A stretch of 17,168 nucleotides of DNA from a virus (taxonomy: Duplodnaviria > Heunggongvirae > Uroviricota > Caudoviricetes), in IMG/VR virus record IMGVR_UViG_2639763151_000002; one strand, written 5' to 3'. The translations under genes and the position numbers were made by a program. Positions 472 to 8,721 of the stretch are shown here, piece after piece. Position 1 is the stretch's first letter. Each line of letters begins with the position of its first letter. The notes under the pieces are model-generated. The model saw only the letters and a program-made list of their open reading frames with translations, did not search any database and was not told where the DNA came from.

Positions 472-488
472 TTTTGTGGAGAAAGTTG

Positions 489-851
489 ATGCGTGATATG
501 TATGAAGTATTGGACCGCTGGGGAGCATGGGCTGCAGCAGAAAATAGTGGTGTGGACTGGCAGCCGATAGCGGCTGGTTTCAAGGGACTTTTACCACACG
601 GTAAAAAGTCACGTCTCCAGTGTGATGATGATGAAGGCATCATGATAGACGGTTGTGTGGCTCGGTTGCGAAAGTATAAACCAGAGGAATATGAGCTAAT
701 CATAGCTCACTTTGTTATTGGTATCTCATTACGCACTATTGCCAAGAAGAGAAGATGTTCAGATGGCACAATTAGGAAGGAATTGCAGACTGCCATGGGG
801 TTTATCAGCGGTGTAATAATAACTATAAACCCCATTATGGTAGTTAATTAA
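489..851 (+). CDS. Q: late-gene antitermination protein Q (short, phage 21/82-type; not lambda Q family)
   Basis: Protein MRDMYEVLDRWGAWAA...IAAGFKGLL...CSDG...RKELQ matches the short Q family of E. coli prophages as recalled. ATG at 489 is preceded by GGAG at 478-481; the listed ORF start at 474 is a TTG. It lies directly upstream of the lysis cassette. Confidence 0.75.
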   Translation: MRDMYEVLDRWGAWAAAENSGVDWQPIAAGFKGLLPHGKKSRLQCDDDEGIMIDGCVARLRKYKPEEYELIIAHFVIGISLRTIAKKRRCSDGTIRKELQTAMGFISGVIITINPIMVVN

Positions 852-1419
852 TGTGAATCCTATCACCAAGATAGTATAGTCCAAAAAATGTTGAAACAAG
901 CATTTGCCATGTAAGGAATAAAAAGATAATGATATAGCACCAGTTTGCTATATCATTATTCAGTATGTTTATTAGTGGTGTGATAAAAGCGTTGAAAATC
1001 ACTATGCATATGCTGAGGGCAGTTAAAAATGAAAATAACATGCACAGAAATAATCTTCTGGTAAGTTTCTCTTGAGTGTCAACAATTCTACCATTTTCTT
1101 TTGTTCGTGTAATTTTAATAAAAGGAGTGCCATTAGTTCCTATCAGAGGGTAGTCAATTTGTTCTCTGTTGAAAGTGGCTATTGCTGCAAGAGCTGCTAT
1201 ATAAAAACCTGGCAGATTTGATACAAATCCAGATATAGACTTAATAAAGCCGCCATCTTTTAGTAGGTCTGATGTAGGTATTTTAAATAAATAAAAGTAA
1301 AAAAAAGAAATCACAGCAAGCCCGGCAGGTGCATAAAAATCGTATGCGCACTTACCACTAATTCCCTTAATGAAAAGGTAACCAAACGGTCTAAATAAAT
1401 GTGAAAATATACTAATCAT
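844..1419 (-). CDS. hypothetical integral membrane protein, 191 aa, about four predicted TM helices; second gene of the AT-rich cassette
   Basis: Uninterrupted ORF with GAGG 7 nt upstream of the ATG at 1419. Hydrophobic stretches AGLAVISFFYFYLF, GFYIAALAAIATF, LFLCMLFSFLTALSICIVIF and WCYIIIFLFLTWQMLVSTFFGLYYL. No lambda counterpart. Confidence 0.7.
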   Translation of the reverse strand: MISIFSHLFRPFGYLFIKGISGKCAYDFYAPAGLAVISFFYFYLFKIPTSDLLKDGGFIKSISGFVSNLPGFYIAALAAIATFNREQIDYPLIGTNGTPFIKITRTKENGRIVDTQEKLTRRLFLCMLFSFLTALSICIVIFNAFITPLINILNNDIANWCYIIIFLFLTWQMLVSTFFGLYYLGDRIHIN

Positions 1420-1426
1420 ATTAGCC

Positions 1427-2455
1427 TCACATGACCTCGATAATCTTATTCACAAACTCCATGTTAATACTATCATAAGAATCCTTTAAGCGCGAAGAAA
1501 AACCATTTATTACACTCTTTTTGATAAATGTTTTTTCCAGCCCATCCAGCCTTACATTTGAAGTTTGAAGGTCAACTTGTCTTGTGAATCCTGTCTCTGG
1601 CTCTTTGAATTTTATTTTTATTAAGTCATAACCTCCATTTTTATCTTCTTTAAAGAAGTTTGAGACAGATTTTATCCATCCAAGGACATTGTTGGGGCCA
1701 TGGTTTGGTACTAAGCGTAAAGTACTTTCTTTAGGAATAATAGCCGCGTTAACATCTGGCGCATTAATAGTTCTGTATTCATTCTTTACCAAAACGACAT
1801 CAGAAAGTCCTTCTTTATTTATTTTATTGAACAAATCTTCATCTAACTTTCCAGATATATCAAAGACTGGCTTGTATAATACTTTTATTTTTTTCTTTGT
1901 TAAACTTGACACTTCATTTGTTAAAGTGTTACATGAAAAGATATCTTCATTATCTTTGGCTACGTTAAAGAGAACTTTATTCAGGAAACCATTTATTTTT
2001 GCTGTGGAAACTCCTGGTATTGGCATAAAACTCATGTCATACGTTCGCATATTTCCGTCTAGAGAAATAATCATATGAGAAGAAACTTCGTAACCTTCAC
2101 CTTCCTCATGTTTTGGTGATATTTCGGTGCGAACATCTGTATTAATGTTTTTTAATACAGTAGTGCTTCCATTTTTATCTACAGCATTAATTAAAAGACC
2201 AAGATGGCTGGGTTTTTTATCGGCTCTGTTTGATAAGAATATTACATCTTGTAAAGTTAAAACTAAGTCTCCTTTTTCATAACTGTGCATCATTGCTTTA
2301 CAACGTACTATTTTAGAAGCAAGTTCACGCATTGTTGGTACCGGGCAAACACAGTTCGATCTGATGCTATCATCAATTTTCTGTGTACGGTATTGTGTAT
2401 CGATCGTAATAGTATGATGAGTTATTACTCTACTAAATGCGTCCAGTGTAGCCAT
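1427..2455 (-). CDS. hypothetical soluble protein, 342 aa, Lys/Asn-rich; first gene of the AT-rich cassette
   Basis: Long ORF in about 30% GC DNA whose stop lies 7 nt upstream of the membrane gene start, giving an operon arrangement. No Walker A, HNH or other motif was recognised by eye. Confidence 0.7.
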   Translation of the reverse strand: MATLDAFSRVITHHTITIDTQYRTQKIDDSIRSNCVCPVPTMRELASKIVRCKAMMHSYEKGDLVLTLQDVIFLSNRADKKPSHLGLLINAVDKNGSTTVLKNINTDVRTEISPKHEEGEGYEVSSHMIISLDGNMRTYDMSFMPIPGVSTAKINGFLNKVLFNVAKDNEDIFSCNTLTNEVSSLTKKKIKVLYKPVFDISGKLDEDLFNKINKEGLSDVVLVKNEYRTINAPDVNAAIIPKESTLRLVPNHGPNNVLGWIKSVSNFFKEDKNGGYDLIKIKFKEPETGFTRQVDLQTSNVRLDGLEKTFIKKSVINGFSSRLKDSYDSINMEFVNKIIEVM

Positions 2456-2568
2456 TTCAAAATATCCGCTTCTTTGCTGTTTTTATATGGAGAAAGTTTA
2501 CATAACCACTAACGCGTACGCAAAAACTATTGTATCGTGTTAAGAGTGGTTACTTCGCCACACAGCTT

Positions 2569-2598
2569 AAACCCGCCGTCGAGCGGGTTTTGTCGTTT
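2569..2598 (+). terminator. candidate intrinsic terminator (tR'-like) upstream of the holin gene
   Basis: Stem AAACCCGC / GCGGGTTT at 2569-2576 and 2583-2590 with loop CGTCGA, followed by TTTTGTCGTTTC. The position between the Q region and the holin is where the Q-antiterminated tR' is expected. Confidence 0.4.
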
Positions 2599-2742
2599 CT
2601 GGGGCTGGGGATTCGTTGGTCCTGGCCTATTCCGCAGTTATCCATTGGCTCGGCTTCTTTGACGTTTCCGCTTCTGATTTGCGGTACATGATGTTCCCTC
2701 AATTTGCACCTGCTGTATCAGCGAGGTGAGAGATAACTACAA

Positions 2743-3069
2743 ATGCCTCATAACCCAAATACCTGGCTGGAGTTGGTCCAGAGCTGGTGGCGTGGAGACA
2801 CACCACTGGGCGCAGTGATTATGTCGATTGTTATGGCTGGATTGCGCATTGCCTATTTTGGCGGTGGTGGTGGGTGGAAGCGAAAAACGCTCGAGATTTT
2901 GCTCTGTGGTGCTCTGACGCTGACTTTTGCATCCGCTCTTGAGTATGTCGGATGGCCTAAATCTCTTTCTGTTGCCATTGGTGGCGGTGTTGGGCTGATT
3001 GGTGTCGATGCAATTCGTGGGGTTGCAATGCGAGTAATCGGTAACAAATTTGGTAGCTCGAAGGAGTAA
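2743..3069 (+). CDS. holin (class I-like, three predicted TM helices); not lambda S family
   Basis: 108-aa protein with three hydrophobic segments and a charged C-terminus, ending 3 nt before the endolysin R start. SD GAGGTGAGAG precedes the ATG. Confidence 0.7.
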   Translation: MPHNPNTWLELVQSWWRGDTPLGAVIMSIVMAGLRIAYFGGGGGWKRKTLEILLCGALTLTFASALEYVGWPKSLSVAIGGGVGLIGVDAIRGVAMRVIGNKFGSSKE

Positions 3070-3072
3070 TTT

Positions 3073-3549
3073 ATGCAGGCACTAAATTCCCAGCGTAAAG
3101 CTTTCCTCGATATGGTGGCATGGTCAGAAGGAACGGATAACGGACGGCAGAAAACCAGAAATCATGGTTATGACGTCATTGTAGGCGGAGAGCTATTTAC
3201 TGATTACTCCGATCATCCTCGCAAACTTGTCACACTAAACCCAAAACTAAAATCAACAGCCGCCGGACGTTATCAGCTTCTTTCACGCTGGTGGGATGCT
3301 TATCGTAAGCAGCTTGCTCTGAAAGACTTCTCTCCGAAAAGCCAGGACGCTGTGGCATTGCAGCAGATTAAGGAGCGTGGCGCTTTACCGATGATTGATC
3401 GCGGTGATATTCGTCAGGCAATTGACCGTTGCAGCAATATCTGGGCTTCACTGCCGGGCGCTGGTTATGGTCAGTTCGAGCATAAGGCTGACAGCCTGAT
3501 TGCAAAATTCAAAGAAGCAGGCGGAACGGTCAGAGAGATTGAGGTATGA
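3073..3549 (+). CDS. R: endolysin R (lytic transglycosylase)
   Basis: 158 aa, near-identical to lambda R as recalled ([56 protein letters not shown]...). Confidence 0.95.
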
Positions 3550-4007
3550 GCAGAGTAACCGCGATTATCTCCGCTCTGGTTATCTGCATCATCGTCTGCT
3601 TGTCATGGGCTGTTAATCATTACCGCGATAACGCCATTACCTACAAAGCCCAGCGCGACAAAAATGCCAGAGAACTGAAGCTGGCGAACTCGACAATTAC
3701 TGACATGCAGGTGCGCCAGCGTGATGTTGCTGCGCTCGATGCAAAATACACGAAGGAGTTAGCTGATGCGAAAGCTGAAAATGATGCTCTGCGTGATGAT
3801 GTTGCCGCTGGTCGTCGTCGGTTGCACATCAAAGCAGTCTGTCAGTCAGTGCGTGAAGCCACCACCGCCTCCGGCATGGATAATGCAGCCTCCCCCCGAC
3901 TGGCAGACACCGCTGAACGGGATTATTTCACCCTCAGAGAGAGGCTGATCACTATGCAAAAACAACTGGAAGGAACCCAGAAGTATATTAATGAGCAGTG
4001 CAGATAG
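3546..4007 (+). CDS. Rz: Rz inner-membrane spanin (i-spanin)
   Basis: 153 aa, near-identical to lambda Rz as recalled; the ATGA start/stop overlaps the end of R. Confidence 0.95.
3766..3948 (+). CDS. Rz1: Rz1 outer-membrane lipoprotein spanin (o-spanin), embedded in Rz in the +1 frame
   Basis: 60 aa with lipobox LVVVGC and proline-rich stretch [15 protein letters not shown], matching lambda Rz1 as recalled. Confidence 0.9.
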
Positions 4008-4332: not shown

Positions 4333-4623
4333 GGTGTTATTCCCGATGCTTTTTAAAGTTCGCAGAATCGTATGTGTAGAAAATTAAACAAACCCTAAAC
4401 AATGAGTTGAAATCTCATATTGTTAATATTTATTAATGTATGTCAGATGCGAAGGATCGTCACTGTATTCCCGGATTAACTATGTCCGCAGCCCTGACAG
4501 GGAAACTCCTCTGCGGGAGTGTCCGGGAATAATTAATAACGATGCACACAGGGTTTAGCGCTTACACGTATTGCATTATGCCAACGCCCCGGTGCTGACA
4601 CGGAAGAAACCGGACGTTATGAT

Positions 4624-5157
4624 TTAGCGTGGAAAGATTTGTGTAGTGTTCTGAATGCTCTCAGTAAATAGTAATGAATTATCAAAGGCATAGTAATATC
4701 TTTTATGTTCGTGGATATTTGTAACCCATCGGAAAACTCCTGCTTTAGCAAGATTTTCCCTGTATTGCTGAAATGTGATTTCTCTTGATTTCAACCTATC
4801 ATAGGACGTTTCTATAAGATGCGTATTTCTTGAGAATTTAACATTTACAACCTTTTTAAGTCCTTTTATTAACACAGTGTTATCGTTTTCTAACACAATG
4901 TGAATATTATCTGTGGCTAGATAGTAAATATAATGTGAGACATTGTGACGTTTTAGTTCAGAATAAAACAATTCACAGTTTAAATCTTTTCGCACTTGAT
5001 CGAATATTTCTTTAAAAATGGCAACCTGAGCCATTGGTAAAACCTTCCATGTGATACGAGGGCGCGTAGTTTGCATTATCGTTTTTATCGTTTCAATCTG
5101 GTCTGACCTCTTTGTGTTTTGTTGATGATTTATGTCAAATATTAGGAATGTTTTCAA
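4624..5157 (-). CDS. hypothetical protein, homolog of lambda right-end ORF lambdap78 (annotated elsewhere as putative envelope protein)
   Basis: 177-aa ORF in AT-rich DNA at the same distance from cosN as lambdap78, as recalled. Confidence 0.65.
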
Positions 5158-5319
5158 TTAATAGTATTGGTTGCGTAACAAAGTGCGGTCCTGCTGGCAT
5201 TCTGGAGGGAAATACAACCGACAGATGTATGTAAGGCCAACGTGCTCAAATCTTCATACAGAAAGATTTGAAGTAATATTTTAACCTCTAGATGAAGAGC
5301 AAGCGCATGGAGCGACAAA

Positions 5320-5526
5320 ATGAATAAAGAACAATCTGCTGATGATCCCTCCGTGGATCTGATTCGTGTAAAAAATATGCTTAATAGCACCATTTCTATG
5401 AGTTACCCTGATGTTGTAATTGCATGTATAGAACATAAGGTGTCTCTGGAAGCATTCAGGGCAATTGAGGCAGCGTTGGTGAAGCACGATAATAATATGA
5501 AGGATTATTCCCTGGTGGTTGACTGA
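5320..5526 (+). CDS. small hypothetical protein, homolog of lambda lambdap79 / YbcW-like
   Basis: 68-aa [36 protein letters not shown]... at the lambdap79 position relative to cosN. Confidence 0.6.
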
Positions 5527-5690
5527 TCACCATAACTGCTAATCATTCAAACTACTTAACCTGTGACAGAGCCAACACGCAGTCTGTCACTGTCAGGAAA
5601 GTGGTAAAACTGCAACTCAATTACTGCAATGCCCTCGTAATTAAGTGAATTTACAATATCGTCCTGTTCGGAGGGAAGAACGCGGGATGT

Positions 5691-5885
5691 TCATTCTTCA
5701 TCACTTTTAATTGATGTATATGCTCTCTTTTCTGACGTTAGCCTCCGACGGCAGGCTTCAATGACCCAGGCTGAGAAATTTCCGGACCCTTTTTGATCAA
5801 GAGCGATGTTAATTTGTTCAATCATTTGGTTAGGAAAGCGGATGTTGCGGGTTGTTGTTCTGCGGGTTCTGTTCTTCGTTGACAT
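5691..5885 (-). CDS. small basic hypothetical protein (YlcI/DUF3950-like), 64 aa
   Basis: Intact ORF MSTKNRTRRTTTRNIRFPNQMIEQINIALDQKGSGNFSAWVIEACRRRL about 200 bp upstream of cos; it resembles small prophage proteins at this position. No clear SD was examined. Confidence 0.4.
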   Translation of the reverse strand: MSTKNRTRRTTTRNIRFPNQMIEQINIALDQKGSGNFSAWVIEACRRRLTSEKRAYTSIKSDEE

Positions 5886-6084
5886 GAGGTTGCCCCGTAT
5901 TCAGTGTCGCTGATTTGTATTGTCTGAAGTTGTTTTTACGTTAAGTTGATGCGGATCAATTAATACGATACCTGCGTCATAATTGATTATTTGACGTGGT
6001 TTGATGGCGTAGATGCACGTTGTGACATGTAGATGATAATTATTATCATTTTGCGGGTCCTTTCCGGCGATCCGACAGGTTACG

Positions 6085-6096
6085 GGGCGGCGACCT
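6085..6096 (+). other. cosN, the 12-nt cohesive-end sequence GGGCGGCGACCT (terminase nicking site)
   Basis: Exact lambda cohesive-end sequence, flanked by lambda-like GACAGGTTACG upstream and CGCGG.TTTTC.CTATTTATGAAAATTTT downstream. Confidence 0.85.
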
Positions 6097-6272
6097 CGCG
6101 GTTTTTCACTATTTATGAAAATTTTTCAGGGAAAATCGTGTCGGTACTTCTCGAATATAACTTTTTGTTTTTTTTTATATTGCATCCGTAAAGGTCCGAC
6201 ATGAAAGTGTCCGAAAATGCCTTTTTCTGGCGTTTTCATGTCGGGCCTTGTATTTGATAATGGGTTGTTTTC
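6097..6272 (+). promoter_or_regulatory. cosB-like terminase small-subunit binding region between cosN and Nu1
   Basis: The cosN-proximal block resembles lambda, then diverges. Inverted repeat GGTCCGACATGAAA (6193-6206) / TTTCATGTCGGGCC (6234-6247) plus a half-repeat GTCCGAAAATG (6209-6219), consistent with R-type Nu1 sites. Confidence 0.55.
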
Positions 6273-6821
6273 ATGAAGGTTAATAAAAAGAGGCTTGCCG
6301 AAATTTTCAACGTGGACCCGCGGACGATTGAACGCTGGCAGTCTCAGGGACTCCCTTGCGCCTCCAAAGGTAGTAAGGGCATTGAATCTGTATTTGATAC
6401 TGCCATGGCAATTCAGTGGTATGCGCAGAGGGAAACTGATATCGAAAACGAAAAGCTCCGCAAAGAACTGGACGATTTGCGTGCGGCAGCGGAGTCAGAT
6501 TTACAACCCGGCACCATTGACTATGAACGCTACCGGCTCACAAAAGCGCAGGCAGATGCGCAGGAACTGAAAAATGCCCGTGAAGACGGAGTAGTGCTGG
6601 AAACTGAACTGTTTACCTTCATTCTGCAACGTGTGGCACAGGAGATTTCGGGGATACTTGTGCGTGTGCCGTTGACATTACAGCGTAAATATCCGGACAT
6701 TTCACCATCACACCTTGATGTGGTGAAAACTGAAATCGCGAAAGCCTCCAATGTTGCAGCTAAGGCCGGTGAAAACGTGGGCGGGTGGATCGATGATTTC
6801 AGACGCGCAGAAGGCAGCTAA
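6273..6821 (+). CDS. Nu1: terminase small subunit Nu1
   Basis: 182 aa [12 protein letters not shown]...[11 protein letters not shown], aligning with lambda Nu1 (MEVNKKQLADIF...) but diverged in the N-terminal DNA-binding part. Confidence 0.9.
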
Positions 6822-8721
6822 TGCAGCCGGTGCGATAGCTACAGGGCTTTTATCTCTCATTATTCCTGTTCCACTGACGACAGTTCAGTGGGCCAATAAA
6901 CATTATTACCTTCCTAAAGAGTCGTCTTATACCCCGGGGCGGTGGGAAACACTGCCGTTTCAGGTTGGCATCATGAACTGTATGGGCAACGATCTGATTC
7001 GCACGGTTAACCTGATTAAATCTGCCCGTGTTGGTTATACAAAGATGTTGCTGGGAGTGGAGGCTTATTTTATTGAGCATAAATCACGCAACAGCCTTCT
7101 TTTTCAGCCCACGGACTCAGCTGCTGAAGATTTTATGAAATCTCATGTTGAGCCAACGATAAGGGATGTTCCTGCATTGCTGGAGCTGGCTCCATGGTTC
7201 GGAAGAAAACACCGCGATAATACGCTCACCCTGAAGCGTTTTTCCTCCGGTGTGGGGTTCTGGTGTCTGGGTGGTGCGGCAGCAAAAAACTACCGTGAAA
7301 AATCCGTGGATGTGGTCTGTTATGACGAGCTTTCCTCGTTCGAACCGGATGTTGAAAAAGAGGGTTCGCCAACCCTGCTGGGGGATAAACGTATTGAGGG
7401 CTCTGTATGGCCAAAATCCATTCGCGGCTCGACGCCTAAAATCAAAGGCTCCTGCCAGATCGAAAAAGCCGCTAACGAGTCGGCACACTTCATGCGTTTT
7501 TATGTGCCCTGTCCGCACTGTGGGGAGGAGCAGTATCTGAAATTTGGCGATGATGCCTCGCCTTTCGGTCTTAAGTGGGAGAAGAATAAGCCAGAAAGTG
7601 TTTTCTACCTTTGTGAGCATCATGGCTGTGTGATCCATCAGTCTGAGCTTGACCAGAGTAACGGGCGGTGGATCTGTGAAAACACGGGCATGTGGACCCG
7701 TGACGGCCTGATGTTTTTCAGCGCCCGGGGTGATGAAATTCCGCCGCCGCGCTCCATCACTTTCCATATCTGGACGGCGTACAGTCCGTTCACCACCTGG
7801 GTACAGATTGTCTATGACTGGCTGGATGCACTGAAAGATCCCAACGGCCTGAAAACCTTTGTGAACACCACGCTGGGCGAGACCTGGGAAGAGGCTGTGG
7901 GCGAAAAACTCGATCACCAGGTGCTGATGGATAAGGTTGTGCGTTACACGGCGGCGGTGCCTGCCCGGGTGGTTTATCTGACGGCGGGCATTGACTCGCA
8001 GCGAAACCGTTTTGAGATGTATGTCTGGGGATGGGCTCCGGGAGAGGAAGCCTTTCTGGTGGATAAAATCATCATTATGGGGCGTCCCGATGAGGAAGAG
8101 ACGCTGTTACGTGTGGATGCGGCGATCAACAAAAAATACCGCCATGCAGACGGAACCGAAATGACTATTTCCCGTGTCTGCTGGGACATCGGGGGGATCG
8201 ATGGCGAAATCGTTTATCAGAGGTCAAAAAAACACGGTGTTTTCCGGGTGCTGCCGGTAAAAGGCGCATCTGTCTATGGCAAGCCGGTGATCACCATGCC
8301 AAAAACCCGCAATCAGCGGGGCGTGTATCTGTGTGAAGTGGGGACGGACACCGCAAAAGAAATTCTCTATGCCCGTATGAAAGCCGATCCCACGCCTGTG
8401 GATGAAGCCACGTCGTATGCCATCCGTTTTCCTGATGATCCGGAGATTTTTTCGCAGACAGAGGCGCAGCAACTGGTCGCGGAAGAGCTTGTGGAGAAGT
8501 GGGAAAAAGGAAAGATGCGTCTGCTGTGGGATAACAAAAAGCGGCGTAACGAAGCGCTGGACTGCCTGGTGTATGCCTACGCGGCATTACGTGTGTCCGT
8601 GCAACGCTGGCAGCTTGATCTGGCTGTACTGGCAAAATCCCGGGAAGAAGAGACGACCCGGCCAACCCTTAAAGAACTGGCAGCGAAGCTGTCCGGAGGA
8701 GTGAATGGTTACAGTCGCTGA
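6793..8721 (+). CDS. A: terminase large subunit A
   Basis: Aligns along its full length with lambda gpA as recalled. The start was chosen at ATG 6793 ([13 protein letters not shown]...), which aligns residue-for-residue with the lambda gpA N-terminus; the listed ORF start at 6751 is further upstream and in frame. Confidence 0.95.

Follow-up and report, generated by a model that had tools for sequence, protein, structure and literature searches.

What function is served by two AT-rich genes that a lambda-like prophage carries antisense to its late genes, directly after its antiterminator gene? The question is raised by IMG/VR virus record IMGVR_UViG_2639763151_000002 (Duplodnaviria; Heunggongvirae; Uroviricota; Caudoviricetes), a stretch of 17,168 nucleotides (nt) that is referred to here as the window, in which a cassette at 844-2455 encodes a soluble protein of 342 amino acids (aa), protein A, followed by a 191-aa membrane protein, protein B. 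An original prediction, made from the sequence alone, had regarded the pair as a candidate undescribed defence or exclusion module with the architecture of RexAB. The analysis described here indicates that the cassette is probably a prophage-borne RexAB-type abortive-infection (phage-exclusion) system and a member of the PDC-M53 family. The defence reading has thereby gained support, whereas the claim of novelty has lapsed, as PDC-M53 was published in 2024 and a member was validated in 2026.

Family membership is evident for both proteins. Protein A matches the PADLOC profile PDC-M53A (PDLC04696, E 1.3e-31, residues 8-340 on profile positions 5-316 of 320) together with three other PDC-M53A profiles, and protein B matches PDC-M53B (PDLC04699, E 1.7e-54, residues 4-190 on positions 2-186 of 188). 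Both additionally show full-length matches to PHROG families that lack an assigned function, namely phrog_9879 for A (1-340/340) and phrog_8257 for B (1-191/192), so the earlier statement that no sequence family could be recognised for either product does not hold. The hidden Markov model searches proposed with that prediction thus gave a divided outcome, with full-length PADLOC matches and silence from Pfam: Pfam and NCBIfam returned noise only for A and B, and Pfam was empty for 52 diverse members of the A family as well. No paper was retrieved when the literature was searched for the RefSeq accessions of the cassette proteins. PDC-M53 is among the phage defence candidates of Payne et al. 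(2024, bioRxiv 10.1101/2024.01.29.577857), which number 145 and are untested. There, PDC-M denotes multi-gene candidates from guilt-by-embedding, and the defensive role predicted for PDC-M53 rests on its occurrence inside BREX, DISARM or type I restriction-modification (RM) loci.

The two genes of this family are rarely separated. In the window, A comes first and lies adjacent to B on the same strand with a 7-nt spacer, and among 160 related loci (80 from genomes and 80 from IMG/VR viral records), 154 have an A homologue immediately upstream of B and in the same orientation, comprising 75 of the 80 genome loci and 79 of the 80 viral loci; three of the five exceptions in genomes are cut by contig ends. 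Profile searches recovered 34 close homologues of A in Enterobacterales and 308 clusters at 50% identity, as well as more than 600 matches to B, with hosts among the alpha-, beta- and gamma-Proteobacteria and occasional others. The two minus-strand open reading frames (ORFs) had been called at exactly these lengths, and their hundreds of homologues and full-length PHROG matches bear the call out.

An experimentally validated relative is RexABpp (PP_5643/PP_5644), which prophage P1 of Pseudomonas putida encodes (Rosendahl et al. 2026, PMC12894663). Defence by this system requires both genes; RexApp binds DNA non-specifically, and its overexpression leads to growth arrest and membrane leakage that depend on RexBpp. 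RexABpp was counted there among only five Rex-like systems, with an HHpred probability of 98.2% between RexApp and lambda RexA (PMC12894663). The B profile picked out, in IMG/VR, a locus designated L166 (IMGVR_UViG_637000222_000004, 5003-6564), whose B protein carries six of the seven RexBpp residues named in that study (W25, F35, L55, S145, G153 and Y181); the seventh, T103, is unmatched, and the threonine there occupies position 102. With a His6 tag, the A protein of L166 would weigh 37.47 kDa, against 37.5 kDa published for RexApp. In the neighbourhood of L166, a CI-like repressor and then two small ORFs precede A and B, and a small pair of convergent genes comes after them; this pair is taken, judging from its sequence, to be HicAB2 of the same study. 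Because residue signature, protein mass and gene neighbourhood agree, L166 is identified as the P1 rexABpp operon. Its proteins score as PDC-M53A (E 8.4e-157) and PDC-M53B (E 2.8e-72), from which it follows that validated RexABpp belongs to PDC-M53 and that the window cassette is a divergent relative of it. This link is unstated in the RexABpp paper, which mentions neither PADLOC nor PDC, and in the other literature searched. Protein B of the window is 38% identical to RexBpp (E 2e-29), and homology to a validated Rex-type pair, a mark of the broad RexAB type, is thus found via RexABpp. Membership in a family that includes RexABpp places the cassette within a known, recently validated kind of anti-phage system.

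The predicted structures of the two proteins are in keeping with this assignment. Protein A is soluble and mildly basic (isoelectric point 8.5), and the structures nearest to its model are RdgC and lambda RexA, so that it displays the two-domain RexA/RdgC fold expected of the soluble partner in the broad RexAB type; no PDB chain was retrieved with a sequence profile of the A family. It is proposed to be a DNA-binding sensor. Protein B has four hydrophobic helices according to both hydropathy and its AlphaFold model, as the original prediction had described for a soluble protein paired with a four-helix membrane protein. The AlphaFold2 model (predicted local distance difference test score 86.4) places these helices at 23-44, 58-82, 121-153 and 156-189, with a beta-hairpin at 100-118 inside the loop between helices 2 and 3 (84-121). 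In the family alignment, the motifs LPGFYIAALAA in helix 2, RR at the opening of helix 3 and GLYYLG at the C-terminus are invariant, and basic residues flank the loop at 84-121; by the positive-inside rule, this loop and both termini are predicted to be cytoplasmic. Protein B therefore presents the four transmembrane helices and central cytoplasmic loop of a Rex-type membrane partner, as in RexB and Sbash gp31, and it is proposed to be an inner-membrane protein acting as the membrane effector. The suggested structure searches were informative for A and much less so for B, whose model gave no significant structural match. By template modelling (TM) score, the viral structure model that best matches B over its full length is that of a 165-aa mycobacteriophage Sbash protein (TM 0.42/0.47; genome KP027201), and since that length fits gene 31 alone among Sbash genes 21-89, the matched protein fits gp31, the RexB-like effector. 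The likeness to RexAB noted earlier thus extends beyond architecture, to the fold of A and to a family shared with RexABpp.

Membership in the narrow lambda RexA/RexB family is a separate matter. Searches with Pfam and PADLOC at E values up to 1 found no RexA (PF15969) or RexB match for the cassette proteins, and hhalign comparison of the A family with lambda RexA, given as a single sequence or as a 29-sequence alignment, yielded a probability of 1% or less, which remained 1% or less with an enlarged A alignment of 172 sequences. Comparisons of the B family with RexB, and comparisons with Sbash gp30 and gp31, gave nothing significant. These results place the cassette outside the narrow family; nevertheless, the published HHpred value for RexApp makes distant homology between A and RexA likely, although it was unreproduced by hhalign here. 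Co-transcription with cI in an immunity region was not found either, as the repressor-like genes of the matching prophage lie ~6 kb upstream. Broad Rex-type membership rests on fold, architecture and homology to RexABpp.

Several observations weigh against this assignment. The cassette lies away from the immunity repressor, unlike the Rex pairs of lambda and P1, and protein A is only 22% identical to RexApp over 278 aa (E 6e-4). The match of B to the 165-aa Sbash protein is below significance (E 0.65), and an interaction between RexApp and RexBpp was not seen in a bacterial two-hybrid assay (PMC12894663). The experimental defence data within PDC-M53 come from RexABpp and not from the enterobacterial clade, and the evidence for expression of the cassette in a lysogen is limited to a conserved candidate promoter. 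Furthermore, a PADLOC scan of 95 large ORFs flanking 36 chromosomal loci detected MADS genes in 3-4 and methyltransferases in 2-3, a modest association with defence genes that was not used as strong evidence.

The anatomy of the cassette is that of a compact operon. Gene A (1427..2455, minus strand) and gene B (844..1419, minus strand) are intact ORFs that start with ATG. At their junction (1420..1428, minus strand), the spacer at 1420-1426 is accompanied by a Shine-Dalgarno sequence, GAGG (1428-1425), which overlaps the TGA stop of gene A and stands 5 nt upstream of the gene B ATG; this is an operon layout that suits coupled translation, as had been deduced from the 7-nt gap and the Shine-Dalgarno sequence, and the A-B order retained among related loci agrees with it. 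The G+C content of the cassette (844-2455) is 0.333, compared with 0.519 in the remainder of the window, and in a sliding profile the values between about 750 and 2550 remain within 0.30-0.36. Hand counts of about 30% and 53% had been given for two local segments, and they proved exact (0.300 at 1441-1500 and 0.533 at 7201-7260).

The window itself represents the late half of a lambda-like Escherichia coli prophage, with the gene order DUF968 gene, Q (PF06530), cassette, holin, lysozyme, Rz, bor and terminase, and across the tested 2 kb it is identical to a prophage that E. coli 04-00955 carries at argU/intD. The Q antiterminator gene (474..851, plus strand; Pfam E 2.8e-45; annotated in NZ_CP035498, with the RefSeq start at window position 489) forms the left boundary. 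It is convergent with gene B and overlaps it by 8 nt (844-851), the TAA of B lying at 844-846 and that of Q at 849-851, which leaves no space for a promoter or terminator between the two. The right boundary is the lambda-family holin S gene (2743..3069, plus strand; 97% identity to the SfII holin region), the first gene of a lysis cassette that continues with lysozyme R (3073-3549, plus strand) and Rz (3546-4007, plus strand). With Q on one side and the lysis genes on the other, all on the plus strand, the A-B pair is antisense to the late genes, in agreement with the orientation originally assigned to it.

The position between Q and S is a recurrent one. In all 34 enterobacterial-clade IMG/VR loci, a PF06530-type Q gene is convergent with B at a gap of -1 to 84 nt, although the Q alleles share 57%-89% identity with the Q protein that a sister E. 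coli prophage (L014) encodes. In 29 of the 34, lysis genes could be recognised 193-2800 nt upstream of A, on the strand opposite to it. The same layout of Q, cassette and lysis genes occurs in annotated Serratia and SfII loci and, in part, in Citrobacter. Other cargo is found here as well: phages 434 and D2 carry nmpC in the Q-S slot, likewise antisense, and the sister prophage (2015C-3163, NZ_CP027219) has an antisense two-gene cargo in it (582-2974), which comprises a 391-aa NA37/YejK-family protein (Pfam E 1.2e-23) and a 404-aa protein with C-terminal hydrophobic segments. Neither of these two proteins has a PADLOC match, and their arrangement resembles type II PANGU operons.

Beyond the cargo lies a conserved phage-backbone block (2505..2600, plus strand) of ~95 nt, common to phages with different cargo in the slot, as seen in an alignment of the window, the NA37-carrying E. 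coli prophage, SfII, 434 and Serratia, in the last of which it is partly conserved. Of this block, 77 nt match many lambdoid phages at 89-95%, and backbone homology restarts about 25 nt upstream of the gene A ATG. It contains the palindrome GCGTACGC, which overlaps the candidate -35 element of the cassette, and a strong plus-strand intrinsic terminator recognised by a terminator scan, which consists of a stem-loop at 2569-2590 and then TGTCGTTTCT; the block may belong to the late-gene control region. No convincing plus-strand sigma-70 match for the late promoter pR' was found in 2456-2568 or 2591-2742. The cargo is thus located between the Q stop codon and the terminator-bearing block. The stx genes lie downstream of tR', a different position from that of the cassette. 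The claim that the pair occupies a site of phage cargo is therefore upheld by nmpC, and its comparison with stx is not: unlike stx, the A-B pair appears to be outside the late operon, right after Q and upstream of the block with the terminator.

A candidate sigma-70 promoter for the cassette (2495..2523, minus strand) consists of a -35 element TTGCGT (2523-2518), a 17-nt spacer and a -10 element TAAACT (2500-2495), located 40 nt before the gene A ATG with a predicted leader of about 33 nt. A consensus scan missed it because its -35 element fits at only 3 of 6 positions. The geometry TTGCGT-17-TAnnnT, beginning 63-99 nt before the ATG, recurs in 12 of 13 distinct upstream regions (31 of the 32 enterobacterial-clade loci tested); the -35 lies inside the conserved block, the -10 hexamers are variable but valid, and the leaders differ across the clade. 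This comparative evidence, short of proof, suggests that the cassette may be read leftward from its own promoter.

Gene B also contains, in its 3' third, a perfect inverted repeat (926..959, either strand) with a 14-bp stem and a 6-nt loop, which lies 75-108 nt past the convergent Q stop and has a terminator-like score on both strands. Codon shuffles of B gave longest stems of 4-10 bp, reaching 10 or more in 1 of 300, versus the 14 bp observed. The repeat is retained in the ~80%-identical homologues L016, L105 and L107 with changes on both arms, a different 13-bp repeat is present nearby in L112, L113 and L123, and the SfII type has none; Rfam at gathering thresholds found nothing over the window. 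It could serve as a terminator or 3' stabiliser of the Q transcript, or as an attenuator of the cassette.

The carriers of the pair belong to unrelated prophage types, including lambdoids of E. coli, Shigella, Serratia and Citrobacter, a PM2-like Vibrio element and P. putida P1. Among 5426 complete E. coli genomes, the window-type cassette is present in 15 and the SfII type in 9, which together amount to 24 (about 0.4%). In sequenced phages, homologues of B were found in Shigella phage SfII, two Vibrio elements and Salmonella phage F1055, as well as over part of its length in Moraxella phage Mcat23, and tblastn with A identified SfII alone; megablast against phage genomes matched the backbone and not the cassette itself. 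The SfII and Vibrio homologues also match the PDC-M53A/B profiles. In Vibrio cyclitrophicus (L007, 6992-8558), a PDC-M53 pair of 331 and 185 aa is situated at the end of a small PM2-like element, recognised by its P2_N/P2_C spike-protein domains and represented by phage records PQ189345 and PQ189338, which shows that the family travels on non-tailed phage elements too. A 2198-bp contig filed as an Erysipelotrichaceae metagenome-assembled genome (L015, JBJFHC010000248.1) encodes a B protein 100% identical to that of the window and contains an A gene; it is probably a mis-binned E. coli prophage fragment.

Two further features of the window lie outside the cassette. The DUF968 gene upstream of Q (61-471) has a weak match to HNHc_6, a family of HNH-like nucleases (E 8e-7). 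Between bor and the small terminase gene, a second stretch of low GC (0.39) at 4350-6270 contains a DUF1398 (ybcV-like) gene (4624-5157, minus strand), a ybcW-like ORF (5320-5526, plus strand) and a DUF3950 (YlcI/YnfO) gene (5691-5885, minus strand), for which a PADLOC scan returned no match.

A working model can be built on the gene anatomy, family membership, fold of A, topology of B, strict pairing and prophage residence of the cassette. We infer its remaining parts by carrying the properties of RexABpp over to the E. coli pair, and the trigger, the contact between A and B and the promoter have the same standing. Exclusion that needs both genes, with excess A activating B and membrane integrity being lost, has literature evidence for RexABpp, lambda and Sbash. 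In a lysogen, a sigma-70 promoter belonging to the pair itself, placed where cargo meets backbone, would drive its leftward transcription, and the two genes would be translated as an operon. Protein A would act as a dimeric, non-specific DNA binder of the RdgC/RexA fold that senses infection, and protein B would form an oligomer of four-helix subunits that stays inactive in the inner membrane. A superinfecting phage would bring about a change of state in DNA of the cell or the phage, or in DNA-protein complexes, upon which A would contact the cytoplasmic face of B, probably at the loop 84-121 and the C-terminal GLYYLGDRIH tail. The opening of B would then depolarise or permeabilise the membrane, halting both growth and phage development and thereby protecting the lysogen population and the prophage. 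Possible triggers include a phage DNA-protein intermediate, as proposed for lambda, or, as in PANGU, damage to host DNA that sets A free.

The second of these triggers could also define a mechanism in its own right, in which A clamps the host chromosome and is freed to activate B when a phage breaks down or remodels host DNA. The sensor of type II PANGU is freed when T4 EndoII degrades the genome (bioRxiv 10.64898/2026.04.06.716658), and the N-domain of YejK is weakly similar to RdgC and CENP-N, in the fold neighbourhood of A. The non-specific DNA binding of RexApp (PMC12894663) would suit such a clamp, and the sister prophage places an NA37 gene with a membrane-anchored partner in exactly the Q-S slot. 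However, A does not match Pfam NA37 at E values up to 1, and the hhalign probability between the A family and the NA37 protein of that prophage is 0.25%, so nucleoid release is regarded as an unlikely account of the cassette. It is quite improbable that the pair instead serves the prophage's own cycle, either by timing lysis, with B resembling a holin or antiholin, or by biasing the choice between lysis and lysogeny as lambda RexA does. The idea draws on the location of the pair against Q and near the lysis cassette in all 34 enterobacterial-clade loci, on the hairpin in B just past the Q stop codon, and on lambda RexA, which is reported to affect the bistable switch without RexB. Nevertheless, B has no holin-family match in Pfam or PHROGs, the cassette is antisense to the late genes, and outside Enterobacterales the pair stands beside CI in P. 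putida, terminally on a PM2-like element in Vibrio, or in chromosomal loci without detectable Q or lysis genes. The presence of unrelated cargo in the Q-S slot, nmpC and the NA37 pair, further implies that this position reflects a cargo hotspot and not a lysis function.

Many prophage membrane proteins block phage DNA entry, and B, a predicted inner-membrane protein encoded by a prophage, could likewise exclude superinfecting phages at the envelope by blocking DNA injection or a receptor without killing, with A as its regulator. The strict co-occurrence of A and B, the larger size of A and its DNA-binding fold make such a role very improbable, as does the behaviour of RexABpp, in which A activates B-dependent toxicity and leakage, amounting to abortive infection and not to an entry block (PMC12894663). 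That the pair stabilises the prophage as a toxin-antitoxin-like addiction module, B being the toxin and A its controller, is scarcely credible: B of this family is potentially toxic and silent under normal conditions (PMC12894663), and the pair is a two-gene operon on mobile elements, yet deletion of A is tolerated and its overexpression is toxic in RexABpp, the reverse of antitoxin behaviour (PMC12894663). The neighbouring HicAB2 is reported in that study as not implicated in P1 stability or phage defence. The reading of the cassette as a RexAB-type abortive-infection system of the PDC-M53 family is therefore preferred.

A broader and rather doubtful proposal is that clamps of the RexA, RdgC and YejK folds, each joined to a membrane effector, make up one class of DNA-state sensors, with an exchange slot reserved for them in lambdoid phages of enterobacteria. 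The slot may lie between the Q stop and the late control block, with PDC-M53, the NA37 pair and nmpC as its cargoes, and these may share a leftward promoter whose -35 element is in the phage backbone. The overlap with Q and the hairpin in B could then tie the cargo to transcription from the Q side, so that the prophage would turn off its own abortive-infection module at induction.

The assignment gives a function to two hypothetical proteins of E. coli prophages and Shigella phage SfII, and it connects the PDC-M53 candidate, validated RexABpp and the lambda RexA/RdgC fold, which are kept apart in the literature searched. If this link is true, Rex-type exclusion would comprise several hundred sequence clusters across Proteobacteria instead of being a rarity of a few phages, and its E. 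coli members would be open to direct tests on standard coliphage panels. The fixed position after Q and the alternative cargo found there additionally mark a defence hotspot in lambdoid phages. The added value is modest, consisting of the PDC-M53-RexABpp-RexA/RdgC link, the Q-adjacent slot with its shared promoter and the conserved hairpin in B.

Among known systems, PDC-M53 as described by Payne et al. (2024) shares with the cassette full-length profiles for both proteins, the A-then-B order and an adjacent operon; it is a computational candidate without a mechanism, and the cassette differs from its source loci in being prophage cargo fixed beside Q, not embedded in an RM-like system. Type II PANGU is a bicistronic system of a YejK-like nucleoid protein and a transmembrane effector that acts by abortive infection (bioRxiv 10.64898/2026.04.06.716658). 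It resembles the cassette as an operon of a DNA-binding protein and a membrane effector, with a sensor fold distantly related to RdgC; however, A is not an NA37/YejK protein by sequence, no NA37 match was present among the listed families for the 52 diverse A-family members at E values up to 0.1, and B (191 aa) is unrelated to the 404-aa partner in the sister prophage. The Rex-like systems of Sbash (gp30/gp31) and Gordonia phage CarolAnn (gp44/gp43) likewise combine a sensor with a four-helix membrane effector in a temperate phage, and the cytoplasmic loop in the middle of Sbash gp31 is important for function, such a loop being predicted in protein B as well; in contrast, their hosts are actinobacterial and their sequences are unlike those of the cassette. 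RexA and RexB of lambda are smaller (279 and 144 aa), show no detected sequence homology to the cassette proteins and are encoded by genes co-transcribed with cI in the immunity region, whereas the cassette is found beside Q. RexABpp differs in its host and phage type and in its place downstream of a CI-like repressor instead of after Q, and it resembles the cassette in protein sizes (330/188 versus 342/191 aa), in a four-helix B, in the A-then-B order and in its location within a prophage.

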